Notes under the pieces: model-generated | Database searches by the model: none | Seen by the model: only the letters and a program-made list of their open reading frames with translations | Told to the model about the DNA's origin: nothing | In this document: in pieces, positions 17,236 through 47,665 of the stretch | Position numbering within the stretch: position 1 is the stretch's first letter | How the letters are laid out: the number at the start of each line of letters is the position of its first letter | Assembly: GCA_051362555.1 (NCBI GenBank) | Contig: CM120648.1 | Span: 597,721-661,720, forward strand | Origin: Lingula anatina | Taxonomy: Eukaryota > Animalia > Brachiopoda | Length of the DNA: 64,000 nt | Direction: 5' to 3' | Program-made: the position numbers and the translations under genes

Positions 17236-19517
17236 ATGGCCATGATGAATACAGCAGTTGTGGTGATAACAGGTTTCTTCACCACAGTGATGGCTCAAGG
17301 TAAACGAACAGAACTGCATTGTGTGGGGAATGCTGATTGTGTTGGTTGTGACAGCAGTGGAGAGCAACTGTGTTAGGTGTGCTGATTGTGTTGTTTACGA
17401 CAGCAGTGGGGAGCCACTGTGTTAGGTGTGCTGATTGTGTTGTTTACGACAGCAGTGGGGAGCCACTGTGTTAGGTGTGCTGATTGTGCTGTTTACGACA
17501 GCAATGGGGAGCCACTGTGTTAGGTGTGCTGATTGTGTTGTTTACGACAGCAATGGGGAGCCACTGTGTTAGGTGTGCTGATTGTGTTGTTTACGACAGC
17601 AGTGGAGAGCAACTGTGTTAGGTGTGCTGGATGTGTTGTTTACGACAGCAATGGGGAGCCACTGTGTTAGGTGTGCTGATTGTGTTGTTTACGACAGCAG
17701 TGGGAGCCACTGTGTTAGGTGTGCTGATTGTGTTGTTTACGACAGCAGTGGGGAGCCACTGTGTTAGGTGTGCTGGATGTGTTGTTTACGACAGCAGTGG
17801 GGAGCCACTGTGTTAGGTGTGCTGGATGTGTTGTTTACGACAGCAGTGGGGAGCCACTGTGTTAGGTGTGGCGATTGTGTTGATTAAATGTTACTAGCTA
17901 CTTTAATATGTTGCCAGCATATATTTTTGTCTCTATCATTGATATGATGAGAAAAATGAAATCTCTCTCAGACATGAAGCTACCTCCAAGATTTATAGTA
18001 CAGCCAAATAGACAGTATTACTTTAAGGTGGATGATGCCACTTTTACACAAGAATTACCTTGTCTTGCCGAAGGAATACCTGAGCCATAGTAAGTATATA
18101 CCATAGCATACCAATGCATTTTCCTGCTACTAAATATCGATTTTTTTAAATAATGTACAATAAAAATACACGAAAACCTTTAGATATTCAGCTGTATTTG
18201 TTATCGCTCGTTTTCCCTTCTAAACAACTGTCCATCCTGAAAATTCCATAAAAATTTGCGTAGAACTTATTGAGATATCTTTTCCACTTACAATCTAATG
18301 TCAATGAAAACATAACGCAAAAACAAACAAACAAACAAAAAATTATCATTAACTGATTAATTTACTAATTAATACACTTTTATCTTTTAGCTAAATTGTG
18401 ATATGATATGATAATATAGCATGACTCGCTGACATGGTAAACTTTTCAAGAAGTTTCCGTTTTAATTTCTTATTTTGATTAACTGCTATAATCAGAAAGC
18501 CTTTTTCTTTAATTATATTTGTTTATATTTGAGCATGTAGGTGAAATGAACTATGCAAAACTATAATTCAGAATTGATTAATATTTATTTCAAATTCTTT
18601 ACAGTTATCAGTGGAAGAAAAACGGTCAATTATTGTCAGTGGGTACTAGATATATATATAGAGGCTGGAACTACAAGCCAAACAGCGGCGGCACCATCAG
18701 CATCAACGACCCCGATTTCAGTGACGAGGGGTATTACCAGTGTCTGGCCAGAAATACTGACGGAATGGTGGCTGTGTCCACAATTGCTTTCTTCCAAAGA
18801 TCGAGTAAGTAAACAAGCTGTTAGCCTCTGGTGGAAATTCTTTCTTGTTACTCCTGAGATATGAATTTTGTTTTAAAGATAGTTGAAATGCTATTTTCCA
18901 GACCCATCCCCACTGTACAATGCTTTATAAACGAAATCTTTGGAATGTAAAGGATATCTTAATAGAAAGAATATAGTTGGTGATTTTAATCAAATGTATT
19001 GAAATTTCAGAAAAAATTACAATTTTCCTTTATTAAGGTGTAACAGTTATTGTATCAATTTTAGCCTGGACATTTTATAGGGAAAAATTATATATAGAAT
19101 TCGTATCTTTTAAAAAACGTTTTAACTCTTTGTAACTCTTTAAAAATTTGTGAGATTATTTACTCTGTTTTAAAGGGGCCGGAGCTTTTCCTTACAATCA
19201 GACAGTAGAGACCAAGGTGGTCCGAGAGGGCGAGAATGTTACCGTGGTGTGTTCAGGAAAACCGCAATTCCCCTACGCGGCACCCAATCCCACCATACAG
19301 TGGGAGCTGTACACGCCTGCCTCTGGGTCTGTGAAAGAAACCCAGGCCATTCTGGCTGATGATAAGAGGAGACAGGTGGACGAGAGTGGTAAGATTAGCA
19401 CTAAGGGGATTGCGTGCAGCAGCAAGAGAGAAAAAAGAGGAATAAAGGAGAGAGAGAGAAGGGTAGAAAGAGGGAGAGAGGGTAGGAGGGAGAGAGGGGG
19501 AGAGAGAGAAATTGGTG

Positions 19518-19553
<36 letters not shown>

Positions 19554-22500
19554 TAGACCATCTTGTAGTATTGTCATGAGGTTTTTGGCACAATATGTCA
19601 TATGTATGGTGCGGTATTACAGTTAACATGCTGTAGTTTTTTTATGTCGCCGCATGAAATATATATATATAATCGAATTATAATTATACTTATAATAAGA
19701 ATATATAAGAATAATATAAGAATGGTGAGACAGGGTATACATTTCAAAATTCCGGTCGGAATATTTCTCACTCATGTTCACTATGAAAGTGAATTTTGTT
19801 TGTTTTATTCAGGAGCTTTGAGGTTTGCATTTGTTACCAGGGATGACTCTCAACCCAACCAGCAGTACAGATGTTCTGCGTATAACTCATTTCTGAAATT
19901 ATCCGTTAATGGAAGTCCAGTTAAACTTTCTGTTGACACAGGTAAGTCTGGGTTATTTCTTAAAGCTTTATGCAAAGGAGGTTCAAATTTAGTGTTGATG
20001 GTTTTGGAATAGAAGTAGATTTCTTGTTTCTTTGAGATTGCATTCTCAATACAAACGAGTTGATCCATGGACTAACAGATCTGCAGATCAAATATGGCCG
20101 ACCCACTTGAATACTTGTATTATAATTCCAGCGGTGAATCTATTCAGTATTCTTAGGCGATCAACCAAATTTTAAGTTGGTCGCCATATTTGATCCGCAG
20201 ATCAGTTGGTCCGCTATTCTGAATGCAGCCTTAAATTATGGAATTTATTTGATTATAATCATATATAAACTTTATTCATATTGTAATTTTTGTATTTATT
20301 TTTCATTATACTGGATGAGTAAAACCGTTTATTTTTCCGATACATTTGTTTTAAACCAATTCGTTCATTCTGTAAACTTCCCTGAGATCTTAATATTGTG
20401 GTCCATATTATAATTAATTATTTATCATCGCCGTCTTCATAATTGCATTTCAGCTAATTCATTGACCGACAATGCCCCAAAGCTGATGTACAAAACTGCC
20501 CCCAAGCCCTCGTCAGGACCGTCTGTTGTCTTCTTGAAGGGACAGAACAGGACTCTAAGCTGTATTTTTGCTGGAAAGTAAGTAACATGATGATGTGCAT
20601 TACAGTAGAAAGACCCGATTTTAGAAAACATGGAAGGGTCACTTTACATTACTATAACGAAGGGCATTCAATAGCTTGGCACTTGGGGCATTTTTATAGT
20701 CACATGTAGGATGAAGAAAACCAAGATAGGCAGTTTATATCTGTGCCCGTACTACTGTACATGTAGTATTATTTTTATTGGACGTCTTGTTTTTAAATAT
20801 ATAAGAAAAGACGAAATAACAAGATCTACCAACCCAAAGGGTGCTACCGTTTAACATTACTAACTATTGGTGTGAAACGGGTACTTACACTGTTATAAAA
20901 CAGGGGAGGTTTTTCTTTTTGTTTTACGCTTACGACTTGTTCTTTTCAATGGGGAAACTAAAAACTATCAGTCTCTTAGATACATAATTTTGGAATCATC
21001 AAATTTTATTTCATTTTTGCTACTTCTAAATTATAATGTTCTAATTTTAAGAATTACGATCCAAAAGCAGCACTTGTTAAATTTCACATTTTCCTAATTG
21101 CAAAGGTCAAGTGTTTACCCTAACTACCAGTGTATTTTGTATCGAATTAGACACAGATTTTGGTCTTCAATATTAGGGTAGTTTCTGGGCTATAAATACT
21201 GGAAAACATGGCATAACTGTGGTAACTGGTTACATAAAATTCTTTGACGAGGATCAGTTGGTAAAAAAGTTCTGAAGCAAGTGGCTGAAATGCCTGTTTA
21301 TTTTCAGACCTGTCCCCACCGTTCGCTGGTACAAACTGGATGCCAATGGCAGGGAAATGAACCCAGATGGAATTGTAGACAAAACCCAAAATCTGGCCAT
21401 TAAAGGTGTGACCTTTGACCACGAGGGCACTTATCGCTGCACTGGGTCCAATACGGGTGGTTCTCAGAGTGCCGAAATTCTGGTTGTTGTGGAAGGTGAG
21501 ACAATGTAATTAAAGTCTTTTCTCTTTCTTGTTTCCTGCTCCTCTCCCCTTTCTCTCATTTTCTCTCACGCACAATAAAGGGAACATTATCTCTGACATG
21601 CTGGTTTCATCTTGTCTTGCCTAGCTGCCCCCTACTGGACTAAAACTGGGAGGCCTAAAGACACCAATGTAACAGATGGTGATGACTTCACCTTTGAATG
21701 TGGCACAGAGGGGATTCCAGCTCCTGACAAACCCAAGTTTTATTCCAATGGTGTGGAATTAGGTGAGGTTTGCAGCAAGACAGGGAACAGGTTAATGCCT
21801 TACATTTGAACATATTACACTCCTCACTCGACAGCGAGAGGCGCATCCAATACCCTCTCTGCATAGAAGCTCAACAGCGTTTGATGCACTTCAAATCTCT
21901 CTGCATAGAAGAACTCGCTCGATGATTGCCGTAGTATAATTGGATGCCGATGATTGAAAAAACGTTTTTTATCACTTTTCTATAAAGATATTCGAAACGT
22001 AGCAGATAGGCCTATGTTTTCGGCAGTTGAAAAGACATCCGCCTGTATGGGACACATGTTACGATAATTTACGCGGCATCAGAGGAGATAGCGAAAAGAA
22101 AGTTTTTCCTGTTAAAAAATATAAGCATACCTATAGAAGATTATAACAGAGACTTTCAATGAAACAGTGATGTAAAAATTCCAGAGGTATTACTATTATA
22201 TGGTAAAGCTTAGAAACAGCTAGCTTTATTTGACTTTGGAATCCACTCAATTCATGGTAATTACACCCCCCCCCCCCAATCACCATCACTAGTGATGTGT
22301 TAGTAAAACGTTCACAATAGAGATTAACAGCTACAAAAAGAAAATACAATATCTAAGTTAACCCAATATTGGTAAAAGGAATATGGTCACATGAAATTGA
22401 GGTGAATCCTCACCGGTATATACACGTTCGGTCTCTGAGGCTCTGAGGAAACAAAATGCTTTTTCAGCCTTAATAAGCAAGTGTAATAATTTCACTATGA

Positions 22501-23439
22501 CCTATTTCATGTTTAATTTGAAAGATCTCAGTCAACCCAGGATATTGTATGATGAGCAGGAGCCAACTAAGTTTACTCTGAAGAACGTCAGCAAAGCTGA
22601 TCTACAGGTGTTCCAGTGTAACGTTAGCAACAAGCACGACTACCTCTACGCCAGCGTTTACCTGAACGTTTTATGTAAGTTGAAATGTCCTCTCTTACTC
22701 TGAAATGTCTTATCTGGGGCTATGGTTTCACATCCCAGTTAAGAAAGACTATTACCTTATATACCTGTATTGCTTAACTGCTACTGGACCAAAATCAGGC
22801 AAGTAGTAATCTAGGAGATGGTACAAACAGGTCATTTGTCATGTTGCAAAAGTATGATTACGTGCTCTAGCGAATGCGCGCATGCATGCACACACATCTC
22901 GCTTAGTAGAATCCCTGTTAGGCCTATTCGCGATTCAAAATGTCATATTCAATTTGACAATATTTATTGTAGCTGAATTTCTAGTTACAGTTGGTGTCTT
23001 GCTGATGTCTTCTCATTTGTTTTACTCATAATTATTTTTCTAGTGAGGACTCGGTTGCTGGTGGAACCTGAACAGACTATTTCCTATGAAGAAGACAATA
23101 AGCCAACCAACGTTAGGTTCAACTGCTCGGCCAGGGGTGACCCGATCACACCACTGACCTTCACCTGGATGTACAAGTAAGGGTCTTACCAGAACACCAT
23201 GGTCCCAATAGTGGGGTGTTCTTGAAGTTAAAGAGAGTTCATTTTCCTTGTGTTAATGACTGTGCATTATTCCCTTTCATATTCCAAAATAATATAGAGT
23301 GAATTCCTGAAACTAAATATTATTTACTCATTATATGTGATTTTTTGACATGTACTACTTACAGTGCCCCTTTTTCCTTAATGACATAAAGCACCTTGAG
23401 GATTTTAAACATGTGCCTCTATCAACTTTTATCATAATG

Positions 23440-23508
<69 letters not shown>

Positions 23509-26500
23509 TGTCTAATGCTTCGGTGGCTGTTTTAATTATTTCATGATATTTTTAGCACATGATTGTTCTTACCACTGCCTGTACACTGCTATTTCCTACA
23601 GAACACTAGATACTGCTAAATGGGTGCCTCTCCCCGCGGGGGGGCCATACACCTTCATCATGGACAATGACCATGGAGTGGACTTGGACATAAATCTGGA
23701 GGAGGATCCAGTCTTTTTCCAGTACAAATGTGTGGTGGATAACGGCTATGTGCCAGTGGAGGTGTTGGCCACTTTGTGGAATAAGGCTGCAGGTAGGAAG
23801 ACAGGACATTTGACTTGAATTTCTCTTTTATTCTTAATATTTTTGAAGTTGCCAGTTTTATAGTCCCAGTTATTTATATCTTATTTTAGATTTATGACCA
23901 GTTTAATAAATCAAGAGCTTTATATTAAAATATGCATGTTTACTGGCAGTCATTCACATATTTATTTTTATGATATCATTTTCAGTTTATTTTCAAAAAC
24001 GCATAACCCCTGCAGTGGCCATGAGACACATGGGCACACCAATTAATGTTTCCCTCTTTCGCAATGTCATAATCTCAAAGGAAAATGTGTTTTGTGATCC
24101 TATTGTCACCCATGTTTACAAGCCTGTTCCATAATCTTTAAAAGTGCAACCATCTTTTATACTTTGTACTCAACCACCCTATATATCAAGAAATATGCCG
24201 ATTTTGCTGTTTTACTTTGTCCTCTCCTGTATGTTTTGGTGGCCATTTTATTTTTTTTTCTGTAACAGTAACGTGCTAGAATGCAGTCACGTACCCTGCT
24301 GTGTTCTTCCGACAGGAAATACATACTGATAGGTAAACGAATAGATACAGCTAGGTAAATATTTACTTATGTTAATATATTTTAACTCTCTATAGATCCT
24401 GCCAGTATATCCATTGATCCAGTTGCCCCTGTATGGACAATAGTAGCTGTCGTAGCTACTACACTTCTACTTCTACTTATTTCTTCTGTGGTCATCGCTG
24501 TAATCGTCAGAAGAAAGAGACATAAACGAGATGCAGGTATATTATTTAACTTACTCGGACTTTTCATGTGAACTAAAAAGGCCAAAGTTATTGTATTTGA
24601 ACTAAAGAAACCAAACATATTGTTTTTATTTTGATTTGATTCTATTTTACTTTATTATTGTTTAAATCAAATTAATTTGCTTAACCGTATTTACTGTATA
24701 TTTATGCATATTTAAATATTGTTTATTAGCACAATATTTTATTCTTACCCGTCAGAAGGCCATGCGTAAAATAACGTGCATATAAATGTTTTTTCTCATA
24801 ATCGCGTATTTCAATTTGTTGATCATTGTTCAGAGAGTCTTCACATTTATGGTAATGGCACAAAATATATAACAAAATTCGCATTTAAAGTACATATGAC
24901 AAACTATATAATGATGGCGTGATATTTCAGATAATGAAGATGATGTTATTGAAATGAATGAAGAATCGATGCAGGTAGTTGATATTCGTATTTAAAAATA
25001 GTAACACTAACCAGTCCAAAATAACATACGCATTTAAGTTTATTGAAAGTCATTCAAGTTATTTTGAATATGGAGTGTATAGATAAATCTGTTCGCAAAA
25101 CTTGCTTCTTTGTCCTTACAGATGCCACCTGCCGAAGTATGGTCATCTAAAATGCCACTGCAAATGAATAATAGCATTTCATTGTCCAGATCATTACACG
25201 GAGAAAATGAAGTGGTAAGGCAAGCTGTATAACAAAATCATTAACTGATAAACTGAAACATTTTTCAAGGCGATGGAATAATTGTTTTTTAGAATTAAAA
25301 ATACTTAATTTATATTTTGAAGGCCGATGATGTTTCGATGTACTTAGAGGTTCTGATGCCTAACTCGGAGATTCCCAGGACACATGTTAGAGTCCATGCA
25401 GAAATCGGCAGTGGATCCTTTGGACAGGTTTATATGGGAGAAATATATAATTTTTATGGTAAAGGAGAGTGGACAGCAGCTGCAGTAAAGACAGTAAAAG
25501 GTACATTATTTTATTTATTCTTACATACCAATAAAGTATCGTATATATAAACAGGGGATTGAAATTTGAATAATTTAAGTTGAATGAATAAAAGCATAAA
25601 GTATAACTGTTACACAAAATGTACTAACTTAATATGATATGGCGCAAATACTGCACACAGTATGAAAATAATTGCATAGAATTATTAAAATAATTGAGAA
25701 ACACCGTCTTAATATATTTGATAAATAATGTATTTTTTTCGACTTTGGATGCGGCCATTGTGCTGTTTTGCTGACCTCAGAAAAGCAATATTGCCCGGGG
25801 CGGATAAAACATCTCATTCTATGAGAATTATATTATAACACATTTAACAAGACTCACTGTTGCGAATTCTTTAGATCCTCACGATTCAGCCCTTGTCAAA
25901 GATTTGAAAGATGAACTAAAAGTGATGCAGACTCTTCGACCACATCCAAATGTAGTCACTCTATTTGCGTCTTGTACGCGTGATGGAGGTAGGTTTAACG
26001 GTTATCTCTTAACTTATAAGCAACATATAAACTTTCCGTTACTGTAGTTACTTCTAATATTAAACCTTCATGTAAGTACCGGTGAATAAGGGCAAGTTAA
26101 AAGTAGGCCTACTGGAGTGTAAATAATATTTTGATTTCTTAAAAACATTTCTGTTTGATATTCGCAGTGTGTATACACAATAATAATAATTTATTCAGCT
26201 TTGAATGTTCCAATTTAATATTGTTCGCTGTCTAGGCTACTACAGAAACTACCATATTATGCTCACATAAAAAGAATTTGATTTGTTATTAAGGTGTACC
26301 AATGATTGTCTTGGAATACCTTCCAAATGGAAATCTGCAGACCTTCCTACGAAATGACCGAGCTCGAAATAAGGCAGTGTATAGCAACTTATATGGCGCC
26401 AGTGCTTCATTAACATCACGAGATCTGATGAAGTATGCTTTCGACGTGGCAAATGGGATGGCGTTTCTTTCTTCTATGTCCGTTAGTATACACCTTTAAA

Positions 26501-28591
26501 TTTTTCGGTGAAATGGGTGCACATTAAATTGGATGGTTACTATTTATTTACTGTAATTTATTCGTTTGCACATTGTGCTACATGTACGTGTACAAGTACA
26601 TATTTAACAACACGGTGCGTTTTAATTTTTTATCTTGTCTATTAGACATCTTTGCTATGATTGATAGTCCGCTAGGAACTGTATTAATTTCCACATAGCT
26701 TTGTGTACAGGGTAGATATCTCAAATAGTAACCATGATACTTCCGGTTTATCCCAACCTGTAGTAATTATATAGGACTACGTTCATTCTTCTGACATTTT
26801 TTTTTTGTCTCAAGAGTATTTCTTTTTCTTTACTTATGTCTTTTAATCAATTTTTCTCAGATTCTGCACAGAGACCTTGCTGCAAGAAATATTTTGTTAT
26901 CTGATGACAAAATATGCAAGGTTTCTGACTTTGGTTTTGCTAGGGACGTGATTGAAAGCCACCAGTATGAAATGAAGTCACAGGTATTATATACTACTGC
27001 TGGTAAATGAAGTCACAGGTATTATATACTACTGCTGGTAAATGAAGTCACAGGTATTATATACTACTGCTGGTAAATGAAGTCACAGGTATTATATACT
27101 ACTGCTGGTAAATGAAGTCACAGGTATTATATACTACTGCTGGTAAATGAAGTCACAGGTATTATATACCACTGCTGGCATCAGATAAAACATACACTTA
27201 TTTCTGGAACAAATACATAATACATTTTATTAAAGATAAGTAAATAACCACTTAATGATTAAAGTTCAGTGTTGGTGGAGAATGGATATCGAAAGCTTTT
27301 TAGTTACAAAGTGTGTGGCAAAAGAGCTTTTGATCTCAAATAACCAAGTTAATAAAATGAGACTTAAAGTCTGGGCGTTTAATAGATCCACTTGTTTACA
27401 GAATCTGTACTGGTTTTATTCCATGTGCATTTGATATGAAAGGGGTTTAAATATGTACACATAACTAAATTATTCTGACCATTCTAAATTCTTTCTAGGG
27501 TCGTGTTCCAGTGCGATGGATGTCTCCTGAAGCTCTGAATGACCACATATTTACTTCCCAGTCCGATGTCTGGGCGTATGGTGTCTTGTTATGGGAGATT
27601 GTCACATTGGGTAAGGCCCTATACAGTACGTATGTTAAATAAATACTAATGTTTTTGTGCAATATAATGGGCATCATCCAAGATTTTCCAAAATCTCGCA
27701 ACTTAGTGTAAAGCTTGGCTAGATTATGAAGGATTTCGAAGGAAGTGGGTCAGATTTAATGACAGGTTAACAAGGGCGGTGAGGTTTAAGCTGACAAAAT
27801 TTTTTCACGGATATTTTCCTGGTCGTTATATCTTTATTTTTATGAAATTATAGTTGCACATTAACACATTTGTCATGTAACTGATGTTTTGTGTGTCTCT
27901 TTTGTGTTGCTTGCTAAGTCGGCATTCCTGATGTGTAGACTTTCTAAAATGATAACGTCACTTCCCTGACTCTCGCTCGTTTTCTAGTCTCGGAAGACAA
28001 GACACATTGCCACCAGCTTCGTTTGATGCTCTTGGGTGATCCTCTTTACAAATTATCTTCTTAAAGACTCTTTTATATTTAGGCTGTATTCCTTACCCTG
28101 GTATGTCAGCTAAGCAAGTGATGAGAAAGATAACTAACGGATACCGGATGCCAAGGCCACAGCACTGTTCACAGGACATGTAAGTATATTTGAAAGTATA
28201 TAGTTTGAAAGGGTTTTAACATCAATCAATCAGGAAGAATATGGAACTTATGGAAAGTGCATGTTAGTGTTCTTTAATCAACAGTGGACTTTGAAAAATG
28301 TATTCTGTGTATTTAAGATTGCGAACGTCTTACAGGCAGCACTTTCTGCAATTACTTTGATAACGGTTATGTTGGGTTGGAAATATTATACATCATGGGT
28401 TTGATCATTTCAGGTATACTATCATGCTGTCTTGTTGGGAAGAGGCACCGGACGCACGACCTTCTGTTACGGATTTAACAAGTTCATTGAACGAATTACT
28501 GGTTGCAGATTACGACGTCTTGGCCTTTGGAGAGTTTGAAGAAGCATTGTATGCTAATATTGACAAATATGACAGTGACGAAAAGTGTTAA
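17236..28591 (+). CDS. RTK-2: receptor tyrosine kinase with signal peptide, five neuroglian/L1-like Ig domains, TM and Cad96Ca/RET-like kinase
   Basis: Exons: 17236-17299 (signal peptide); Ig1 17972-18089, 18605-18804; Ig2 19176-19388, 19813-19941; Ig3 20454-20577, 21308-21495; Ig4 21625-21762, 22525-22674; Ig5 23044-23176, 23602-23792; TM 24396-24536; juxtamembrane 24931-24974, 25122-25214; kinase 25323-25500, 25875-25988, 26294-26481, 26861-26983, 27499-27610, 28083-28179, 28414-28591. Intron phases are compatible throughout and all catalytic motifs are intact. Confidence 0.92.
17330..17880. repeat. 49-bp intronic minisatellite (~11 copies)
   Basis: Unit GTGTTAGGTGTGCTGATTGTGTTGTTTACGACAGCAGTGGGGAGCCACT, head to tail with no spacers. 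Confidence 0.95.
20035..20233. mobile_element. Palindromic MITE (copies at ~38250-38453, ~57720-57930, fragments at ~29600-30070)
   Basis: Long inverted arms GATCAAATATGGCCGACCCACTT / AAGTTGGTCGCCATATTTGATC, with termini ..TGCATTC / GAATGCAGCC. Confidence 0.75.
26972..27179 (+). repeat. 35-bp tandem repeat (6 copies) spanning the splice donor of the activation-loop exon of RTK-2
   Basis: ATGAAGTCACAGGTATTATATACTACTGCTGGTAA starts at 26972, 27007, 27042, 27077, 27112 and 27147. Confidence 0.95.
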
Positions 28592-30825: not shown

Positions 30826-30827
<2 letters not shown>

Positions 30828-30913: not shown

Positions 30914-30915
<2 letters not shown>

Positions 30916-34199: not shown

Positions 34200-37100
34200 A
34201 TGACCATGACGAAGGCAGCAGTTGTGGTGATAACAGCTTTCTTCACTACAGTGATGACACAAGGTAAACACGCAGAACTGCATTGTGTGGGTAATGCTGA
34301 TTGTGTTGTTTACGACGGCAGTGGGGAGCAACTGTGTTAGGTGTGCTGATTGTGTTGTTTACGACAGCAGTGGGGAGCAACTGTGTTAGGTGTGCTGATT
34401 GTGTTGTTTACGACAGCAGTGGGGAGCCACTGTGTTAGGTGTGCTGATTGTGTTGTTTACGACAGCAGTGGGGAGCAACTGTGTTAGGTGTGCTGATTGT
34501 GTTGTTTACGACAGCAGTGGGGAGCCACTGTGTTAGATGTGCTGATTGTGTTGTTTACGACGGCAGTGGGGACCCACTATGGTAGTGTGCTGATTGTGTT
34601 GTTTACGACGGCAGAGGGGAGCCACTGTGTTAGATGTGCTGATTGTGTTGTTTACGCCAGGAGTGGGGAACCACTGTGTTAGGTGTGCTGATTGTGTTGT
34701 TTACGACGGCAGTGGGGAACCACTGTTTTAGGTGTACTGATTGTGTTGTTTACGACAGCAGTGGGGAGCCACTGCGTTAGGTGTGCTGATTGTGTTGTTT
34801 ACGACGGCAACAGGGAGCCACTGTGTTAGATGTGCTGATTGTGTTGTTTACGCCAGGAGTGGGGAGCCACTGTTTTAGGTGTACTGATTGTGTTGGTTGC
34901 GACAGCCCTGAAGAGCCATCATGTTATTTGTGTTGATTTTGTTAGGTATGCTGATTGTGTCCTGTGGTGACAGCAGTGGGTAGTTATTGCATTAGTAAGT
35001 GTGTGACTGAGTGGTGAGACATTCTGAACTATAAGATTGCAATTTTGGTGATTATGCATTGATTCGTATGGAAAAAGGCACTTGGTTGAATACCGACATA
35101 ATGTTTAAGACTGCTGGGAACTTTTCCTTTTGTGATGAAGAAAAATAATGCGTGACCTAATATTTTCAACTTTACTCTTATTGAAATTGTTTCATATGAT
35201 AATAACGTATTTGAGAAAGGGATTAATGGTGATGGGGGAAAGTAAATCTTAAATAAAAAGGAACAAAAATTACAGAAATAAAGTAGAACATATCTTTATG
35301 GAAACTTCTTTTTGGTTAAATTTAAGGTTACTAAAAGACATGTGACATATAAAGGCTATAACAGTGGTCCTGAGCCGTGTTATAAGTACTCAAAGAAAGT
35401 GGTTATTATTTAATATGTATAAATGTATCACGTTGGTTGTGTCGTAGATGGTGATAACAGCTGGATTTTTTTTTCTATTTCAGAAAAAAGATTTATCTTA
35501 TCAGAGAGGCTATAATCAGTGATTTGCTTGTTTGCATGAAAAACTTTAACCATAGGTTGATTAAATGTTACTAGCTACTTTAATATCTTGCCAGCATATA
35601 TTTTTGTCTCTCTCACTTATATGATGAGAAAAATGAAATCTCTCTTTCAGACATGAAGCTACCTCCAAGATTTATAGTACAGCCAAATAGACAGTATTAC
35701 TTTAAGGTGGATGATGCCACTTTTACACAAGAATTACCTTGTCATGCCAAAGGAATACCAGAGCCATAGTAAATATACACCATAGCATACAAATGCATTT
35801 TTCTGCTACTAAATATTGTTTTTTTTAACCAAAAATAATTTACAATAAAATACACGAAAACCTTTAGATATTCAGCTGTACTTAGATAATATATGTATTA
35901 GAAATTACTGAGATATCTTTTCAACTTACAATCCAAAGTCAATAAAAACATAACGTCTCTTGGCAAAAATAAATTAAAAAATTATCATTAACGGATTAAT
36001 TTACTTATTAATACACTTTTATCTTTCAGCTAAATTGTAATATGATATGACAATACAGCATGACTTGCTGACATGGTAGAATTTTCAAGAAGTTCAATTT
36101 TGATTTATTATTTTGATTGATTTATTATTCATATTTTTTCATAAATTTTGCTGCTACCAAATATTGGTTTTTTAAACAAAAGTTATATAAAATAAAAAAT
36201 ACCCGAAAACCTTTAGATATTCAGTTGTATTTGTTATCACCCATAAACCTTCTAAAGAACTGACCATCCTGAAAATTATTTTAAAAAAATTACATAAAAC
36301 TTATTAAAATATCTTTTCCACTTACGATCCAATGTCAAAAAAATTTCTTTTGGCAAAAGTATTTTAAAATTATCATTAACTTTTATCATTTAATGTTACC
36401 TAAATTGAAGTATGATATGGCAATAAAGCATGGCTTGCTGACATGGTAGAATTTTCAAAAAGTTGCCATTTTCATTTATTATTTTGATTGATTTATTATT
36501 CATATTTTATCATAAATACTATAATTATAAAACCCGCTTTTAGTTAAATTTATATTTAAGCGTAGGTAAAATAAACTATGAAAAATTATGAATCAGAATT
36601 TATTAATATTTCTTTCAAATAATTCCTATTTTAAACTTTCTTTCTTAAAAGATGAGCACATAATGCTTAAAGCCATTTTGCCATCTGAATATGTATATGT
36701 ATATGTATATACTATTCTGTAACTTTCATGAACTGATAAATATGTTTTTAAAAGTTATGAGTGGAAGAAATTCGGTGAGTTATTGTCAGTGGGTACTAGA
36801 GGCTGGAATTGGAAACCAAACGGCGGCGGCACCATCAGCATCAACGGCCCCGATTTCAGTGACGAGGGGTACTACCAGTGTCTAGCCAGAAATACTGACG
36901 GAATGGTGGCTGTGTCCACAATTGCTTTCTTCCAAAGAGCGAGTAAGTAAACGAGCTGTTAGTGGTGATTCTTTCTTGTTATTCATGAAATATGAAAGGT
37001 TTGTGGTACAGATAGATGAAATGCTGTTTTCCAGACCTATTCCAACTGTAAATGCTTAATAAATTGTAATCTTTTGAATGAAATGGATATATTAAGCGAA

Positions 37101-37840
37101 ATAATATAGTTGCTGATTAAATTTTATGTATTGGAATTTCAGATAAAGTACAATTTTCCTTTATTAGGGTGTAACAGTCATCGTAATTTTTAACCTGGAC
37201 ATTTTATAGGGAAAATGATTGTATATTATTCGTATCTAAACACGCTTTAACTCTTTGTTACTCTTAAAAAGTTTGTGAGATTATTTACTCTGTTTTAAAG
37301 GGGCTGGGGCTTTTCCTTACAACCAGACAGTAGAAACCAAGGTGGTCCGAGAGGGCGAGAATGTCACCTTGGTGTGCTCAGGAAAACCTCAGTTCCCTTA
37401 TGCAGCACCTAATCCCTCCATACAGTGGGAGCTGTACACGCCTGCTTCGGGGTCTGTGAAAGAAACCCAGGCCATTATGGCTGATGATAAGAGGAGACAG
37501 GTGGACGAGAGTGGTAAGACTAGCACTGAGGGGATTGCGTGCAGCAAGAAAGAAAAAGAGGAAGAGAAGAGAGAAAGAGCGAGAGAGTGAGAGAAGGAGA
37601 GAGAGAGGGGGAATAGGAGAGAGGAATGGCGGGAGTTAGGTAAGTAGGGAGGGAGGGAGGGACGGGAGAGAAAGAGAAAGAGAGGGAAGGGAGAGAGAGA
37701 GAGAGACCATCTTTAGTTAGTTATTTGTATTATTGCCATGAGGTTTTTTGGCACAATATGTCAGTTAACAAGTTGTATTACAGTTAACATGCTGTATTTT
37801 TTATAATATATATATATAATCTAATCTAATTATAAATTAG

Positions 37841-37892
<52 letters not shown>

Positions 37893-40800
37893 CTAATTTA
37901 TAATTATACCTATAATGTGCCACTGACGGTATAAGAATGAAGAGACAGGGTATACATTTGAAAATGTCCAACCAAAATATTTTGCACTCATGTTCACTCT
38001 AAAAGTGAATTTTGTTTATTTTACTAAGGAGCTCTGAGGTTTGCATTTGTTACCAGGGATGACTCTCAACCCAACCAGCAGTACAGATGTTCTGCGTATA
38101 ACTCGTTTCTGAAATTATCCGTTTTTGGAAGTCCAGTTAAACTTTCTGTTGACACTAGTAAGTCTGAGTTATATCTTAATGCTCAATGCAAAGGAGGTTC
38201 AAATTAAGTGTTGATGGTTTTGGAATAGAAGTAGATTTCTTGTTTCTTTGAGGTTGCATTCTCAATACAACTGAGTTGATCCACGAACTAATAGATCCGC
38301 GGATCATATATGTCCGACCCACTTTAATACTTGTATTATAATATCAGTGGAAATTCTATTCAGTATTCTTAGGGGATTAAACAACCAAATTTTAAGTTCG
38401 TCGCCATATTTGATGCGCAGATCAGTTGGTCCGCTATTCTAAATGCAGCCTTAAATTATGGAATTTATTTGATTATAATCATATATAAACTTTATTTATA
38501 TTGTAATTTTTGTATTTATTTTTCATTTTACTGGATGAGTAAAACCGTTAGTTTTTCCGATACATTTGTTTTAAACCAATTCGTTCATTCTGTGTATTTT
38601 AATGAGATCTTAATGTAGTGGTCCATATTATTATTCATCTTAATCATTGTCTTCATAATTACATATCAGCCAATCCACTGACCGTCAATGCCCCAAAGCT
38701 GATGTACAAAACTGCACCAGTGCTGTCATTAGGATCATCTGTTGTCTTCTTGAAGGGACAAAACAGAACTCTGAGCTGTATTTTTGCTGGAAAGTAAGTA
38801 AAAAGATGCTGTGCATTACAGTAAAAAGACCCGATTTTAGAAAACATGGAGGGGTCAATTAACTTTACTATAATAAAGGGCATTGAGTAGCTTGGCACTT
38901 GGGCCATTTTTATAGTCACATTTAGGATGAAGAAAACCAAGATAGGCAATTCATATCTGCGCCCGTACTTGTATTATTTTTAGTGGTCTACTTGTTTATA
39001 CATATAAGAAAAGACAAAATACCAAGATCTACCCACCCAAAGGGAGCTCCCGTTTAACATCACTTGTTATTGGTGTGAAACAGGTACTTACACTGTTATA
39101 AAACAGGGGAGGTTTTTCTTTCAATAGTTTTACGCCAACGACTTGAACTTTTCAATGGGGAAATCTATCAATCTCTTAGATACATAATTTGAGAATCAGT
39201 CAAATTTCGCTTCTCAATTATTATGTTCTAATTTTCATTTTTCCTTATTACACAGATCGAGTCTTTACCGTACTGCCAGTTTATATTGTATCGAATTAGA
39301 CATAGATGTTGGTCTTAAAGATTAGGCTAGTTTTTGGGCTATAAATGCTGGGAAACATGACATGACTCTCGTCACTGACTACATTAGATTCTTAGACCAG
39401 GACCAGTTGGTAAAAACGTTCTGGAGCAGGAGGTTGAAATGCCTGTTTATTTTCAGACCTGTCCCCACCATTCGCTGGTACAAATTGGATGCCAATGGCA
39501 AGCTAATGACCCCAGATGGAATTGTAGACAAAACCCAAAATCTGGCCATTCAAGTTGTGACCTTTGACCACGAGGGCACTTATCGCTGCACTGGGTCCAA
39601 TCCGGGTGGTTCTCAGAGTGCCGAAATTCAAGTTGTTGTGGAAGGTGAGGCGATTTTATTTACATGTCTTTTCTCTTTCTTGTTTCCCGTTCTCTAGCCC
39701 CTCCTCTCACTTTCTCTCAAGCATAATAACGGGAACAGTATCACTGACATGCTGGTTTCATCTTGTCTTGCCTAGCTGCCCCCTTTTGGACAAAAACTGG
39801 GAGACCTAAGGACACCAATGTAACAGCTGGGGATGACTTCACCTTTGAATGTGGCACAGAGGGGATTCCAGCTCCTGACAAACCCAAGTTTTATTCCAAT
39901 GGTGTGGAATTAGGTAAGGTTTGTCATCACTTCAGGGGTTACCATGAGCCTGTGGAGCTTTGCAGCTGACAGGGAAAGAGTTATTACCTTACACTTGCAC
40001 ACATACACGTCTCCATCGACAAAGAGAGACGCTTCATATGCCCTTTCTGCAGGGCAGAAACCACCAAATAATTTCCAATTGACGACCATACTAAGAAATG
40101 CCTGCAAAACTGCATGAACAAAATTACTGGGTGAAACATTTCCCATCCCGTGGACAGCAGACACACTTACATAACTCCCAATGGCCAAAAAATATACTGT
40201 CGTCAGACATTATTTCTTACCGGCATCACTTGAACATGTGCACCCCTCTGTTTGTAAACAAACCACTGCACCACTCACAGTCAGTAGCCCCCTCCGCCAG
40301 AGGTCTCACGACTGCACGGCACCTGTGCCTGGTAGGCCTACTGAAAAAAAAATGGCAGTAGTTTACACCCTGGCCTGCCAGTTGATACCAAAATTAACCC
40401 TAGCAACATACAAGAAATGCCAGGAAAAAAACACTTATTTTCTCTCACTGAACTATATACGTCTATAACAGTCGGTGATTCATTGGCTGATTTAATGGTT
40501 TCTGCCCTGCATAGAAGCTCAACGGCGTGTGACGCATTTCAAATGTCTCAGCATAGAAGAGTTTACACGTTGATGGCATAAGTATGATATTCGATGCCGA
40601 TGATTAAAAAGACGTTTTTAATCAGTTTTCCATATAAAAAAAATTGAAACGTCGCAGAATGTAAACGGCAGTTCAAAACGCTCCCGCCTGTATGGGACAC
40701 ATGTTACGATAATTTGCGCAGCATCAGAGGAGATAGCGAAAAGAAAGCTTCGCCTGTTAAACAATATAATCATACCTATAGAAGATTATAAAAGAGACTG

Positions 40801-43800
40801 TCAATGTAACAGTGACGTAAAAATTCCAGAGGTATTAATTTTTATATGGTAAAGCTTAGAAACAGCTTAAATTTGACTTTGGACTCCCCTCAATTTGTGT
40901 CAATTGCCCCCACCCCCCTCCCCACACACACACACACCACCACCACCACCACCAGTGGTACCGTTAGTAAGACTTTCACAATCTATAGAATTTAACAGTT
41001 ACAAAAAGAAAATACAATATCTAAGTTAACCCAACATTGGTAAAAAAAATACTAAACATTTATATTACCTCAGAGGTATAACATTCTGTTCCTTTATCAA
41101 AAGTCAAAGGAATATGGTCACATGAAATTGAGGTGAATCCTCACCGGTATAAACACGTTCGGTCTCTGAGGCTCTGAGGAAACAAAATGCTTTTTCAGCC
41201 TCAATTAGCAAGTGTAATAATTTCGCAATGACCTATTCCATGTTTAATTTGAAAGATCTCAGTCAGCCCAGGATACTGTATGATGAGCAGGAGCCGACCA
41301 AGTTTACTCTGAAGAACGTCAGCAAAGCTGATCTACAGGTGTTCCAGTGTAACGTTAGCAACAAGCACGACTACCTCTACGCCAGCGTTTACCTGAACGT
41401 TTTATGTAAGTTGAAATGTCCTCTCTTACTCTTAAATGTCTTATCTGGGGCTATGGTTTCACATCCCAGTTAAGAAAGACTATTACCTTATATAACTGTA
41501 TTGCTTAACTGCTACTGGACCAAAATCAGGCAAGTAGTAATCTAGGAGATGCTACAAACAGGTTATTTGTCATGTTGCAAAAGTTCGATTACGTGCTCTA
41601 GCGAATGCGCGCATGCATGCATACACATCTCGCTTACTAGAATCCCTGTAAGGCCTATTCCCGTTTGCTCCATCATAAGATTCAAAATGTCATATTCAAT
41701 TTGATAATATTTATTGTAGCTGAATTTCTTGTTACAGTTGGTGTCTTGCTGATGTCTTCTCATTTGTTTTTAATCAAAATTTTTCTAGTGAGGACTCAGT
41801 TGCTGGTGGAACCTGAACAGAATGTTTCCTATGAAGAAGACAATAAGCCAACCAACGTTAGGTTCAACTGTTCGGCCATAGGTGACCCGATGACGCCGCT
41901 GACCTTCACCTGGATGTACAAGTAAGCCTCAAATCAGAGAATAACGTTAGTAACGTGATCTTGAAATACAATTACTAATCTCTGTCATTTAAACACCCTT
42001 AATATTGAACGTGTGTGTGTGTGTGTGTGTACACACTGACTGTGCACTGCTACTTCCTGCAGTACGCCAGAAACTGACAAATGGATGCCTCTCCCCGCGG
42101 GGGGTCCGTACACCTTCATCATGGACAATGAACATGCAGTGGACTTGGACATAAGTCTGGAGAAGGGGTCAGTCCATGTCCAGTACAAATGTGTGGTGGA
42201 AAACGGCTATATGCCAGCGGAGGTGTTGGCCACTTTGTGGAATGAGAATGCAGGTAGGAAGACAGGAAATTTGACTTGAATTTCTTTTTAATTCGCTGAT
42301 TTTTAAAAATCCATTTATTCATATTTTAATTTAGATTAAGGATCAATTTAATAAATTTTTTATATTAAAATATATGCATGCTTTACTGGCAGTCATTCAC
42401 ATATATATTTTTATGACATTATTTTCAGTTTATTTTTAAAAACGCAATAACCCCTGCAGTGACCATGAGACACATGACAAACCAATTTATGTTTCCCTCT
42501 TCAGCCATGTCATAATCTTTGATGAAAATTTGTTTTGTGATCCTGTCGTCACCATAACCCAGCCAATTGCATATGAAGCATAGCTCGTAAAATATACACG
42601 TACTGTATATAGTTTGCAGTGAATCGCATTGATTTTTATGCTATTTTACGTACAAAAGTTGGTAGCCATCTTGGGTTATGAAAAATGCTCAGTGTTCCGG
42701 AGGTTAGTAAAGCCAAGCTTAGTTGACTTTTCTAACGCAAAACAATTCTTTTTCAAAAAAAAAAAAAAAAAACTTACAGAAAATAACAGAGTGTTGTTCA
42801 GATATGGGACCGATGGAAGTGACAACTGAACTATTCGGAGGGCTTACGCCCTCACTTAACATAAGTTGAATGTTTAACAAGCGGATATTTGTAGTTTAGT
42901 GTTATGGCTAACGAAAAATCACAATGAACAAAATATTAAATAAGATACCGTTAATTGCCAGTAGACTGATAATACCAGAAATATGCCGATTTCGTTATTT
43001 CATCTTCTGCTGTATGTTTTGATGGTCATTTTGTTTTATTTTTTGTAACAGTAACGTGCTAGTATACATCCACGTACCGTATTCCCGACAACAAAATACA
43101 TGCTGACAGTTTAACGGATAGATACTGCTAGGTAAATATTTACATCTGCTCATATGTTATAACTCTCTATAGGGCCTACCAGTATATCCATTGATCCATT
43201 TTTACCTGTATGGACATTGGTGGCTGCTGTTGCTACAACACTTGCACTTTCACTTCTTTCTTCTGTGGTCATCGCTGTAATCGTCAGAAGAAAGAGACGT
43301 CAACGTTATGCAGGTATATTGTTTGAATTACTCGGGCTTTTCATTTGAAATAAAAATGCCATATGTATTGCATTTGAACTATTAAAACAAGCCAAACATA
43401 TTATTTTGTTTTGATTTGATTCAATTTCACTTTTTATTATTTAAATTAAATTAATTTGTTAAACCGTAATAACTCTATATTTATGAATATTTAGATATTG
43501 TCCATTAACACAATGTCTTATTCTTACCCTTCAGAAGGCCATGCGTAAAATAATATAAATGCTATTTCTTATAATCGCGTATTTCACTGTTGAACATTGT
43601 TCAGAGAGTTTCGACATACATGTATATTGTAATGGCACAAAATATTTGACATTTCACATTTAAAGTACATATGACAAACTAAATGATGATGACGTGATAT
43701 TTCAGATGATGCTCCTGAAATGAATGAAGAATTGATGCAGGTAGTTGATATTCGTATTTAAAAATAGTAACACTGACCAATCTCAATTGCAAAACACATA

Positions 43801-46800
43801 CGCATTTTAGTTTATTGGAAATCTTTTAAGGTGTTTTGAATATGGAGTGTATAGACAAATCTGGGTGCAAAACTTGCCTCTTTGTCCTTACAGACGCCAC
43901 CTGCCGGAGTAGGGTCATACGAAATACCTCTGCAGATGAATAATGGAACTTCATTGTCCAGATCGTTACACGGAAAAAATGAAGTGGTAAGGCATCTTTT
44001 ATAACAATTTTATAAGTTGATAAACTGAAACCTTTTTCACGGCGAGGAATTGATTTTAAAATATTAAAAAAAATTAATTAAATAAGTACTCTTTAGTTAC
44101 TAAAATAAATGAAGAATGGACGAAGTTTGTTGAGATTTGTGTTTAGTTGCAATAACGGATCTAAAAAAACATACGCATGTTATAGTTTATTGGAAAAGAT
44201 TCAAGTTATTTTAAATATAGGGTGAATCAGCAGATACCGACAAAACTTGCTTCTTTGTCCTTACAGACGCCACCTGCCGGAGTAGGGTCATACGAAATAC
44301 CTCTGCAGATGAATAATGGCACTTCATTGTCCAGATCGTTACACGGAGAAAATGAAGTGGTAAGGCATGCCGTATAAAAAATTATTAGCTGACAAACTGA
44401 AAGCTTTTTCAAAGCGAGGAATTAATTGGTTTTTTAAATTTAAAACTACTCAATATATATTTGGAAGGCCGATGATGTTCCGATGTACCTAGAAGTTCCA
44501 ACGCTTAACACGGAGATTCCCAGGACACATGTTAGGGTCCATGCAGAGATAGGCAGTGGATCCTTTGGACAGGTTTATATGGGAGAAATATATAATCAGA
44601 ATGGCCAAGGAGAGTGGACAGCAGCTGCAGTGAAGACAGTCAGAGGTACATTATTTTATTTTTTCTAACATCTTAATAAAGTATCGTATATATAAACAAG
44701 ATGGCGATTTAGGATGTTCTCTATAAGCAATTACGAGTCACGTAAGATGTTGTGGTGTATATTTGTGTTCTGTGCATCATGGGGAAATGATACAGTAAAA
44801 GTAGAGAGATTGATATTGTGAATAAGTTAGGGGATGATTATACATGTAAGCATAAAGTATAAGTGTTATATAGAATGTACTGTTATAAGATGAAATAGCG
44901 CATATATATTGCATATACACTGTAGTATAAAAATAATTGCATGGAGTTATAAAGATAAGAGAGAAACACCATCTTAATATATTTGATAAATAATGTATAG
45001 TTATCGAATTCGGATGCGAATAATGTGTTGTCTTGCTAAATTTAGAAAAATGATCCGAGGTAGATAAAGCATCGCATTCTGTGCTAATTAAAGAATAACA
45101 CGTTTTACAAGATTCACTTGTGTGAATTCTTTTAGATCCTCATGATTCAGCCCTTGTCAAAGATCTCAAAGATGAACTAAAAGTGATGCAAATACTTCGT
45201 CCTCATCCAAATGTAGTCACTCTATTTGCGTCTTGCACGCGTGATGGAGGTAGGCTGTACAGTTATCTCTTTACTTTTAAGCGACATATAAATCTTTCCG
45301 TTATTGTGAAAACTTCTAATATTAAATCTTCATGTAAGGACAAGTTAAAAGTGCTGGAGTGTAAATAATATTGTGATTTTTTAAAAACATTTGTGTTTGA
45401 TATTCGTAGTGTGTTTATAAACATGCCGCATAATTACTATACACAATAGGATTTGATTTATTATTAAGGTGTACCAATGATTATCTTGGAATACCTTCCA
45501 AACGGAAATCTGCAAACTTCCCTACGAAATGACCGTGCTCGAAATAAGGCAGTGTATAACAACTTATATGGCGCCAGTGCTTCCTTAACGTCACGAGATC
45601 TGATGAAGTACGCTGTCGACGTGGCAAATGGGATGGCGTTTCTTTCTTCAATGTCCGTTAGTATACGCTTTTAAAATTTAGTATATACCTTTAGTATTCC
45701 GATGAAATTGGTGTTTGGTTTGTATTTACCGTAATGTTTGCACACTGTCCTAACAACACAGGGGCTTTTGATTTCTTATCCCGTTTATTAGACCCTCGCC
45801 AGAAATGGTAGTCCGCTAGGAACACAGTACATTCAGTTCCATATATATCACAAATAGTAAACATGATACTTACTGTTTATCCCAACCTGTAGTACCTGTA
45901 ATTATATAGAACTCCTTTCATTCGTCTGCCAATTAACTTGCCTCAAGGCTGTAGATTAGCTACCGCTAACTTTAGAAATTTATACATCTTTCCTTATTTT
46001 TATCTGTTAATTAATTATTCTCAGATTCTGCACAGAGATCTTGCTGCAAGAAATGTTTTATTATCTGACGACAAAAGATGCAAGGTTTCTGACTTTGGTT
46101 TTGCTAGGGACGTGATTGAAAGCCACCAGTATGAAATGAAGTCACAGGTATTATATACTACTGCTGGTAACAGATAAAACATCACAAACGTCTCTTTTCC
46201 TTTTGGAAGAAAAACATACTTTGGTAAAAGATAAGTGAATAAGTGAATAACCACTTCATACTAAAGTTCCACTTTGGTAGAGAATAGATATCAAAAGCTC
46301 AAAACGTGTAGCAAAAGAGCTTTTGACCTCTAATAACTTGGTTACAGAATCGAAACTTGTTTTTATGTCATGTGAATTTGATATGAAAATGGTAAAATAT
46401 GTAGACCTTGTTAAATTATTCTGACCATTCTAAATTCTTTCTAGGGTCGTGTTCCAGTACGATGGATGTCTCCTGAAGCTCTAAATGACCAAATATTTAC
46501 CTCCCAGTCTGATGTCTGGGCGTATGGTGTCTTGTTATGGGAGATTGTCACATTGGGTAAGGCCCTATATGTTGAATAAATACTAATGTTTTTGTGCAGT
46601 ATAATGGGAATCATCCAAGATTGTCCAAAGTCTCGTGTATGGTGATTTCTTGTGGGAGATTGCGACAATGGTTAGGGTCTTATATATGAAGTGAATACTA
46701 GAGGTTATGAAGTATTTGGAGGGAAGTGGGAGAGAGATAATGACAGGCTAACAAGTGCGGTGATTTTCAAGCTTACAACATATTTCTACGGATATTTTTC

Positions 46801-47665
46801 TGGCCGTTGTCTCTTAACATTTTATGGAATTCTATTTTAAGGAAGTCTATTGCACTTTAATACAAATTTATGTTTTGCGTCTCTCTTTTGTGTTGCTTAC
46901 TAAGTCGGCATTCCTGCCGTTTAGAGTTTCAGCGTTATCGCTAAAATGATAACGTCACCTCCCGCGGATTCTCGCGGATTCTCTCACTTTTCTAGTCTCG
47001 TATGACGCGACGCATTGCCTCCAACTTCGTTTATTTTTTGTATCTTTTGTGTTCCCCTTTGCAAATAATATTCTTAGAACTTCTTATATTTAGGCTGTAT
47101 TCCTTACCCTGGTATGTCAGCTGAGCAAGTGATGAGAAAGATAACCAACGGATACCGGATGCCAAGACCACAACATTGTTCACAGGACATGTAAGAATAT
47201 GTGGCAAAATAGTTTGAAAGGATTTCAACATTAATCAACCAAGAAGAATAAAATTCATGAAAATGTAGGATTCAAAACCATTTGGTGTTTGTTTATCAAC
47301 ATTATGCGCCATTTGTTCGTTTATCAATAATACACGCAATAAAAATATGGCGAACGCTTCTGTTTGAAAAATGCATTCTTTGTATCTATAACTGCGTACC
47401 ACTTTATAATTTTTTCTGCAATCACTCTGATAACGGTTACATATGTATGCCAATTTGGAAATATAAGTCGTGGGTTCGTATTTTCAGGTATGGTATCATG
47501 CTGTCTTGTTGGGAGGGGGCACCGAACGCACGACCTTCTTTTAAGGATTTAACAAGTTCATTGAACGAATTACTGGTTGCAGATTACGATGTCTTGACCT
47601 TTGGAGAGTTTGAAGAAGCATTGTATGATAATGTGGACAAATGTGATGGTGACGAAAAGTGTTAA
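34200..47665 (+). CDS. RTK-3: receptor tyrosine kinase with five neuroglian/L1-like Ig domains and Cad96Ca/RET-like kinase
   Basis: Exons: 34200-34263; 35651-35768; 36755-36942; 37301-37513; 38029-38157; 38670-38793; 39457-39644; 39776-39913; 41256-41405; 41789-41921; 42063-42253; TM 43173-43313; juxtamembrane 43706-43740, 43894-43986, 44267-44359; kinase 44468-44645, 45136-45249, 45469-45656, 46025-46147, 46445-46556, 47094-47190, 47488-47665 (DEKC*). Confidence 0.92.
34295..34980. repeat. 49-bp intronic minisatellite (~13-14 copies, degenerating at the 3' end)
   Basis: Same unit as 17330-17880, in the homologous intron. Confidence 0.95.

Follow-up and report, generated by a model that had tools for sequence, protein, structure and literature searches.

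The 64,000-nucleotide stretch of Lingula anatina contig CM120648.1 analyzed here (the window) is intron-rich animal DNA of 37% GC in which three receptor tyrosine kinase (RTK) genes, RTK-1, RTK-2 and RTK-3, lie in tandem on the + strand. RTK-2 and RTK-3 encode chimeric receptors: in each copy a signal peptide is followed by five immunoglobulin (Ig) domains of two exons apiece, one transmembrane (TM) helix, a short juxtamembrane region and a kinase. The original prediction that these parts splice together in frame was borne out. In exon-by-exon models, 20/20 introns in RTK-2 and in RTK-3 are bounded by GT-AG, the sole stop codon is the terminal one, and the predicted junctions between the last Ig exon and the TM exon, 23792->24396 and 42253->43173, are exactly those that keep the frame, both at phase 1. 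The joined reading frames of both copies are confirmed in the DNA. As a control for chance, pieces of matching lengths from window positions 48000-56000 were joined at random, and 0 of 20000 such joins were stop-free. Single exons of RTK-2 match Ig and PK_Tyr_Ser-Thr in a profile search.

Two other Lingula sequences bear on these genes. P0003 (XP_013411031), a 685-residue 'neuroglian', has the same five Ig domains and its own TM segment, and no kinase. RTK-1 (1..11999, + strand), whose 5' end lies outside the window, has an EGF exon at 332-474 (PF00008, E 5.3e-6) and a TM exon at 903-1025. RTK-3 is an allele of XP_013393693/XP_013393683 of Lingula anatina, the former (P0002) labelled 'FGFR4-like X2'; of 30 candidates, a search with exon 4 matched two, both of them proteins of this species. 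P0002 and RTK-3 are identical over the kinase region (329/329) and 91-100% identical across the ectodomain regions, and RefSeq isoforms X1 (P0005) and X2 differ by a duplicated juxtamembrane exon, X1 using the copy near 44268-44360. Since the RefSeq model comes from another assembly and has the same architecture, the chimera is already in RefSeq under an FGFR-like label. The features of the two genes are as follows.

17236..28591, + strand: RTK-2, 21 coding exons, 971 residues (signal peptide, five Ig domains, TM helix, tyrosine kinase)
17236..17299, + strand: RTK-2 signal-peptide exon, 15/21 residues identical to P0003
17972..22674, + strand: RTK-2 L1-type Ig1-Ig4 region, 89-97% identity to P0003
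17972-18089, 18605-18804, 19176-19388, 19813-19941, + strand: RTK-2 Ig1-Ig4, exons 1-4 of 8
20454-20577, 21308-21495, 21625-21762, 22525-22674, + strand: RTK-2 Ig1-Ig4, exons 5-8 of 8
23044..23792, + strand: RTK-2 fifth Ig, putatively Ig6-type (exons 23044-23176 and 23602-23792), 80-82% identity to P0003
23793..24395, + strand: RTK-2 fusion intron, phase 1, with similarity to RTK-1 from near 24331 (putative junction)
24396..25214, + strand: RTK-2 TM exon (24396-24536) and juxtamembrane exons (24931-24974 and 25122-25214), of probable kinase-gene origin
25323..28591, + strand: RTK-2 tyrosine kinase and tail, seven exons
34200..47665, + strand: RTK-3, 21 coding exons, 964 residues, plus one duplicated juxtamembrane exon near 44268-44360
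35651..41405, + strand: RTK-3 L1-type Ig1-Ig4 region, 88-96% identity to P0003, spliced reads across exons 6-10
35651-35768, 36755-36942, 37301-37513, 38029-38157, + strand: RTK-3 Ig1-Ig4, exons 1-4 of 8
38670-38793, 39457-39644, 39776-39913, 41256-41405, + strand: RTK-3 Ig1-Ig4, exons 5-8 of 8
41789..42253, + strand: RTK-3 fifth Ig, putatively Ig6-type (exons 41789-41921 and 42063-42253)
42254..43172, + strand: RTK-3 fusion intron, phase 1, with similarity to RTK-1 from near 43090
43173..43986, + strand: RTK-3 TM exon (43173-43313) and juxtamembrane exons (43706-43740 and 43894-43986), 47/47 (TM exon) and 42/43 residues identical to P0002
44468..47665, + strand: RTK-3 tyrosine kinase and tail, seven exons

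Both products have the features of an RTK, namely a signal peptide, one TM helix and a tyrosine kinase domain with GxGxxG, K, HRD and DFG. The kinase motifs are intact in RTK-2 and RTK-3, respectively, at 25407 and 44552 (GSGSFG), 25482 and 44627 (AVKT), 26867 and 46031 (HRDLAARN), and 26927 and 46091 (DFG), and the kinase of P0002 matches PF07714 with E 3.7e-87. A 93-bp, tyrosine-bearing juxtamembrane exon is present as a tandem duplicate in RTK-1 (3182-3595) and RTK-3 (43894-44360) and singly in RTK-2. The region 5' of RTK-2 (12699-15523) is homologous, at 73-90%, to that 5' of RTK-3 (30108-33638), and the downstream flanks are shared with RTK-1; the shared flanks on both sides indicate duplication of entire gene units. 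A 49-bp minisatellite of 11-12 copies sits in intron 1 of RTK-2 (17331-17886) and of RTK-3 (34295-34906), and in RTK-2 six copies of the exon 18 donor are carried by a 35-bp repeat at 26970-27178.

Provenance of the ectodomain

Overall identity between P0003 and the ectodomains of RTK-2 and RTK-3 is about 90% (71-97% by region). The tail of P0003 matches Bravo_FIGEY (E 4.8e-23) and carries SFIGQY; the accessible part of PMC2133023 describes FIGQY as a conserved ankyrin-binding motif of L1 proteins. From the Ig values listed above, the identity of RTK-2 to P0003 steps down to 26% over the TM exon and to 3% over the kinase, and in RTK-3 the step occurs at the same place. The P0003 gene is the probable donor lineage of the ectodomain. 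A third Lingula fusion, P0149 (XP_013410057), has an Ig3-Ig4-fifth Ig segment about 70% identical, joined to another N-terminus, TM segment and tail, an architecture that suggests repeated reuse of the module.

Assignment of the Ig domains to the L1 type, and not to that of FGFR, VEGFR or PTK7, had been predicted and is upheld by the FIGQY-tailed paralogue P0003, by structure-database scores, by collinearity and by a tree. The best PDB match of the ectodomain is neurofascin (E 4.8e-39), along with contactins and axonin-1 and then Robo2 and hemolin (E 2.5e-21); otk (1e-14) and MuSK (7e-13) fall far below neurofascin, and the best 60 of 73 matches include neither FGFR nor VEGFR chains. A PTK7/Otk identity was rejected on these scores and on the intact catalytic motifs. 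Residues 20-437 of P0003 are collinear with neurofascin 6-415, and each of the Lingula domains Ig1-Ig4 scores best on the L1 profile of its own position (71, 53, 61 and 68 bits). A tree of four-Ig stretches (17 rows, with long branches flagged and a set devoid of full-length L1) unites the Lingula sequences with neurofascin/NrCAM-like modules of octopus and oyster and with three modules from a JGI protein (100/99); stretches from contactin, DCC, Dscam, hemicentin-like proteins and Ig-RTKs fall elsewhere in it. A word-index search with the ectodomain gave 14 matches, comprising the query and Dscam-like, DCC and contactin-like proteins only, and is weak as a negative, having overlooked true L1 proteins; an Atlas search returned generic Ig clusters.

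The label 'Ig1-5' given to the ectodomain in the original prediction has to be revised for its last domain, which is more likely Ig6-type. The Lingula fifth Ig scores 20-25 bits on the Ig6-position profile and at most 16 on the other four, and in the octopus module it is neurofascin 504-602, the Ig6 position, with which domain five aligns. A direct PDB search with the fifth Ig gave mostly antibody chains, together with weak L1/contactin matches (E 0.05-0.8), of which six fall on the Ig6 position and one on the beginning of a chain limited to Ig1-4. From this indirect and weak evidence, the module looks like L1 Ig1-4 plus an Ig6-type domain, with Ig5 apparently missing. No fn3 match was found in P0002, P0003 or P0005 at E<=0.01. 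RTK-2 and RTK-3 lack the FIGQY tail, and a tblastn search with P0003 found no FIGQY exon anywhere in the window, ruling out a hidden one there. FN3-less modules without a kinase occur elsewhere, with five Ig domains in octopus (P0182) and the JGI protein (P0151) and four in oyster (P0168).

Ig1-4 is predicted, with modest confidence, to fold as a horseshoe. An AlphaFold model of P0003 (pLDDT 63, pTM 0.43) overlays on the horseshoe structures of axonin-1 (TMt 0.69, rmsd 6.1), neurofascin (0.68) and hemolin (0.62) with rmsd 6-8, and on extended Robo1 with TMt 0.42 and rmsd 46.5. An initial fold from a 4-row alignment (pLDDT 40) was unusable.

Provenance of the kinase

The TM exon, juxtamembrane exons and kinase of RTK-2 and RTK-3 are held in common with RTK-1, in which the exon 5' of the TM exon is EGF-like. 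RTK-1 represents the kinase gene in its non-L1 state. The RTK-2 TM exon has 79% DNA identity to that of RTK-1, as against the 26% amino acid identity to that of P0003, and DNA similarity of RTK-1 to both chimeric genes starts within the phase-1 intron, some 65-85 nt ahead of the acceptor of the TM exon. The RTK-1 acceptor homologous to that of the RTK-2 and RTK-3 TM exon (848) is out of frame, and the acceptor at 903 keeps the frame. Shuffling of EGF domains is reported for Lingula collagens in the accessible part of PMC4595640, and a genome paper supplement counts 553 Lingula genes in which a tyrosine-kinase Pfam domain occurs.

A Lingula-only clade (100/100) contains the three kinases of the window, which together make up one subclade (100/99); the other members of the Lingula-only clade (P0021, P0022, P0023 and P0026-P0029) are 60-65% identical. 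Ectodomains of these kinase paralogues consist of Ig or Ig+FN3 domains, or EGF in RTK-1, and their Ig domains are at most 32% identical to those of RTK-2 and RTK-3, in short patches. The predicted resemblance to Cad96Ca/Stitcher holds for pairwise similarity: among the best 120 of 1418 matches, the best named single-kinase proteins outside Lingula are arthropod Cad96Ca, at about 50% identity. In trees of 27-54 rows (the 31-kinase tree being a quick tree) the Lingula clade lies outside FGFR and VEGFR, in a loosely resolved group with Cad96Ca and with orphan RTKs of echinoderms, hemichordates and amphioxus. No free tree unites the Lingula kinase with arthropod Cad96Ca as a clade, a grouping that the approximately unbiased (AU) test nevertheless does not reject when it is constrained (p=0.21). 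No cadherin domain is present in P0002, and PF00028 is found on many Cad96Ca matches.

The top scores of the kinase among solved structures are on FGFR and RET chains. An FGFR identity was rejected by the AU test (p=0.00015), with four FGFR rows of which one is named by its source (P0295) and three by motif, as was a VEGFR/PVR identity (p=0.008), with one source-named row (P0239) and one assigned by motif. Grouping with RET, which one row assigned by motif stands for, is not rejected (p=0.16). P0295 and P0239 are the only source-named rows here; several other reference rows in the kinase trees carry labels that we assigned by their activation-loop motifs. On the trees, the RTK-2 and RTK-3 kinase belongs to a Lingula-only clade for which FGFR and VEGFR are rejected, and is not a demonstrated Cad96Ca orthologue.

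Origin, mechanism and competing explanations

The joined frames, the paralogue P0003, the EGF-bearing RTK-1, the phase-1 junction and the constraint on both halves are in line with a likely origin by exon shuffling. We regard the chimera as real, recent and probably functional. We consider it somewhat probable that RTK-2 and RTK-3 were born by recent exon shuffling and that the receptor is activated when its predicted horseshoe module binds a matching ectodomain on a touching cell. The promoter-proximal exons 1-11 of a short neuroglian-like gene would have come to lie ahead of the TM exon in a kinase gene expanded in Lingula, and tandem duplication of the chimera would have followed. By analogy with L1 biology, the Ig1-4 horseshoe may bind its own kind or the P0003-type adhesion protein, which appears more abundant, across a cell contact, so that bound receptors would cluster there, the clustered kinases would cross-phosphorylate their single activation-loop tyrosine (Y831 in RTK-3), and phosphorylated juxtamembrane and tail tyrosines would recruit SH2/PTB adaptors. 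A single chain would thereby hard-wire the coupling of adhesion to kinase that L1 proteins elsewhere obtain by partnering with EGFR or FGFR as a second protein. For L1CAM, activation of EGFR at cell contacts requires that the two share a membrane (PMC11592701), and clustering is proposed for neuroglian outside-in signalling in the accessible part of PMC2133023.

Between RTK-2 and RTK-3, dS is 0.18-0.19 and dN/dS is 0.21 for Ig1-4 and likewise 0.21 for the kinase, and by domain 0.46 (Ig1), 0.08 (Ig2), 0.42 (Ig3) and 0.05 (Ig4). Ig1-4 and the kinase both look to be under constraint. Reads from 4/9 same-species RNA runs were mapped at 92% on RTK-3 37950-47750 only, RTK-2 not being covered. They splice across the joints of exons 6-7, 7-8, 8-9, 9-10 and 10-11 and across several kinase joints, and the stranded run X1 places them on the + strand.

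Several observations weigh against contact-activated chimeric receptors. Read joints were found within the Ig and kinase halves, and none of the best 15 of 20 joints is the predicted 42253->43173 joint of exons 11 and 12, which connects the last Ig to the TM segment. Depth in the bin of the RTK-3 TM exon is 0.06 (X1) and 0.28 (X7). In X1 the main Ig bins have a depth of 13-58, against about 1 for the kinase bins, which suggests that most Ig reads come from kinase-less transcripts. Only 14/926 mapped reads are at least 99% alike and some kinase reads continue into paralogue sequence, so the read data are no proof of RTK-3's own expression. The reads back splicing inside each half, largely from divergent copies, and a chimeric mRNA is neither shown nor excluded by them. 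In addition, dN/dS is near neutral in the fifth Ig (0.88) and in the TM and juxtamembrane region (0.78), and the low values in both halves could be an inheritance through gene conversion with P0003-type and RTK-1-type genes. Ig1-4 is about 30% identical to non-Lingula L1-like modules, and homophilic binding may not be conserved. The fold model is itself modest, is of P0003 and not of the kinase gene, and 5/14 of its alignment rows are DCC, itself a horseshoe.

The depth profile would also fit a join that is rarely spliced, the Ig exons mainly giving a secreted five-Ig protein by read-through of intron 11 and the kinase exons being near silent. In both copies such read-through meets a stop 8 codons in and an AATAAA about 100-110 nt in (23905 and 42350), and depth declines past the Ig exons until almost nothing is left over the TM exon. 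However, one AATAAA per 600-900 nt of AT-rich intron is, by estimate, close to chance, both kinases are intact at dN/dS 0.21, and tblastn with P0003 finds no other TM or FIGQY exon in the window to serve the Ig exons. Moreover, the drop in depth is also explained by reads of P0003-type paralogues combined with a 92% cut-off on divergent animals. We consider a rarely spliced join unlikely. It is very unlikely that the genes are ordinary old Ig-type RTKs of the FGFR, VEGFR, PTK7 or Tie kind, as the RefSeq 'FGFR4-like' names and the top structure scores of the kinase on FGFR and RET chains might suggest. The AU tests given above reject the union of Lingula with FGFR and with VEGFR, the ectodomain shares 90% identity with a gene whose tail carries FIGQY, against 32% at best, in short patches, with the Ig domains found on the paralogous kinases, and this view is already largely refuted. 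An assembly artefact fusing two genes is barely credible. The join is known from assembled sequence alone, but two copies diverged to dS ~0.18 have it and its intron in common, and the RefSeq model, which derives from another assembly and shows allelic differences, is built in the same way; the artefact was rejected on these grounds.

A different ligand is a rather doubtful alternative, in which the five-Ig module would act like hemolin or molluscan defence molecule (MDM) and bind microbes or a soluble or matrix ligand, making the receptor an immune or wound sensor. The recurrence of the FN3-less module in kinase-free octopus, oyster and JGI proteins is in line with such a role. So is the kinase clade, which is expanded with varied ectodomains, as clades of recognition receptors often are. 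According to the accessible part of PMC11999971, MDM contains five Ig domains and hemolin attaches to the surface of pathogens, and a table of PMC6982143 lists Cad96Ca under wound healing. Yet Ig2 and Ig4 are strongly conserved and diversifying selection is not seen between the copies, the donor paralogue P0003 keeps an ankyrin-binding adhesion tail, and hemolin scores far below neurofascin.

Compared with the preferred origin and contact activation of RTK-2 and RTK-3, a paired system is a more tentative proposal. One L1 horseshoe ectodomain would be carried by an adhesion form anchored to ankyrin through its FIGQY tail and by kinase-tailed signalling forms, with gene conversion keeping both alike. 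Contact would fire the kinase, which may phosphorylate the FIGQY of its partner and so free the partner from ankyrin, possibly for self-recognition or wound sensing. If true, this would be a natural one-chain coupling of L1 to an RTK with both parent genes still recognizable.

Related systems and neighboring features

RTK-2 and RTK-3 resemble the L1-family cell adhesion molecules (neurofascin, L1CAM, NrCAM and Drosophila neuroglian) in collinear Ig1-4 with a predicted horseshoe, and their paralogue P0003 has the FIGQY tail. They differ from that family in having five Ig domains and not six (Ig5 apparently missing), no FN3, no FIGQY tail, and their own kinase in place of a recruited EGFR or FGFR. 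P0003 shares their signal peptide and five Ig domains, whereas its TM segment is its own and its tail binds ankyrin. With arthropod Cad96Ca/Stitcher they share the single activation-loop tyrosine and a Tyr...EK-type C-terminus; unlike it, they have no cadherin domain, and the trees do not group them with Cad96Ca. Within the Lingula orphan RTK clade of RTK-1 and the seven paralogues named above, one kinase clade is combined with interchangeable ectodomains (Ig, Ig+FN3 or EGF), and the L1-type module is found only on RTK-2 and RTK-3. Orphan RTK expansions of echinoderms, amphioxus (the 'EXTK' expansion) and corals are similar to this Lingula-expanded clade, and the exchange of ectodomains is already known from RTK families that have expanded in invertebrates. 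Hemolin, which is L1-related, and the five-Ig MDM, compared by its description in the accessible part of PMC11999971 only, are Ig modules without FN3 or kinase. On its domain content and relationships, the chimera is best classed as a shuffled-ectodomain RTK and not as an L1-family member.

Among 328 proteins compared, 260 have the tyrosine kinase catalytic motif. An L1-module profile built from non-Lingula sequences matches 79 of the 260, end to end in two, P0002 and P0005, which represent one locus (269 bits; the next scores 89). The set is biased, its representative search being the best 150 of 319,356 and lacking P0002 and P0003, and clustering can hide chimeras. The architecture was found nowhere else among the compared proteins, a moderate negative. 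That it might already be a described family was raised with the original prediction; the protein does stand in RefSeq as FGFR4-like, and no description of the chimera was found in the literature on Lingula RTKs, neuroglian and the hemolin horseshoe, subscription journals being outside the search. A term search did not find 'neuroglian' in the accessible main text or supplements of two Lingula genome papers. L1-family proteins signal by recruiting separate receptor kinases, and their activation by adhesion is inferred from two-protein systems; a natural L1-ectodomain kinase would allow a direct test of whether horseshoe contact alone suffices. The locus, known from one genus so far, also makes visible the birth of a receptor by exon shuffling, with a relative of the ectodomain (~90% identical), a relative of the kinase with another ectodomain, and the junction intron all in view.

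RTK-1 is probably disrupted in this haplotype. A 5147-bp insertion at 3747-8893 splits its first kinase exon. Its ends are perfect 14-bp inverted repeats that begin with CACTG, and 3 bp (GAG) are duplicated, features consistent with a CACTA/CMC-type DNA transposon. The RTK-1 kinase dN/dS of 0.13-0.17 suggests that the disruption is recent. An RTK-1 intron also contains a broken Tc1/mariner-like transposase at 1750-2775 (HTH_Tnp_Tc3_2, E 1.3e-6; DDE_3, E 1.5e-6). Beyond the receptor genes, a 274-codon stop-to-stop frame without a Pfam match lies on the - strand at 49253-50077. A multi-exon multicopper-oxidase gene, presumably ceruloplasmin/hephaestin-like by its motifs, occupies ~57160-64000 on the + strand and runs off the window end (Cu-oxidase_3, E 6.2e-5 in one exon).

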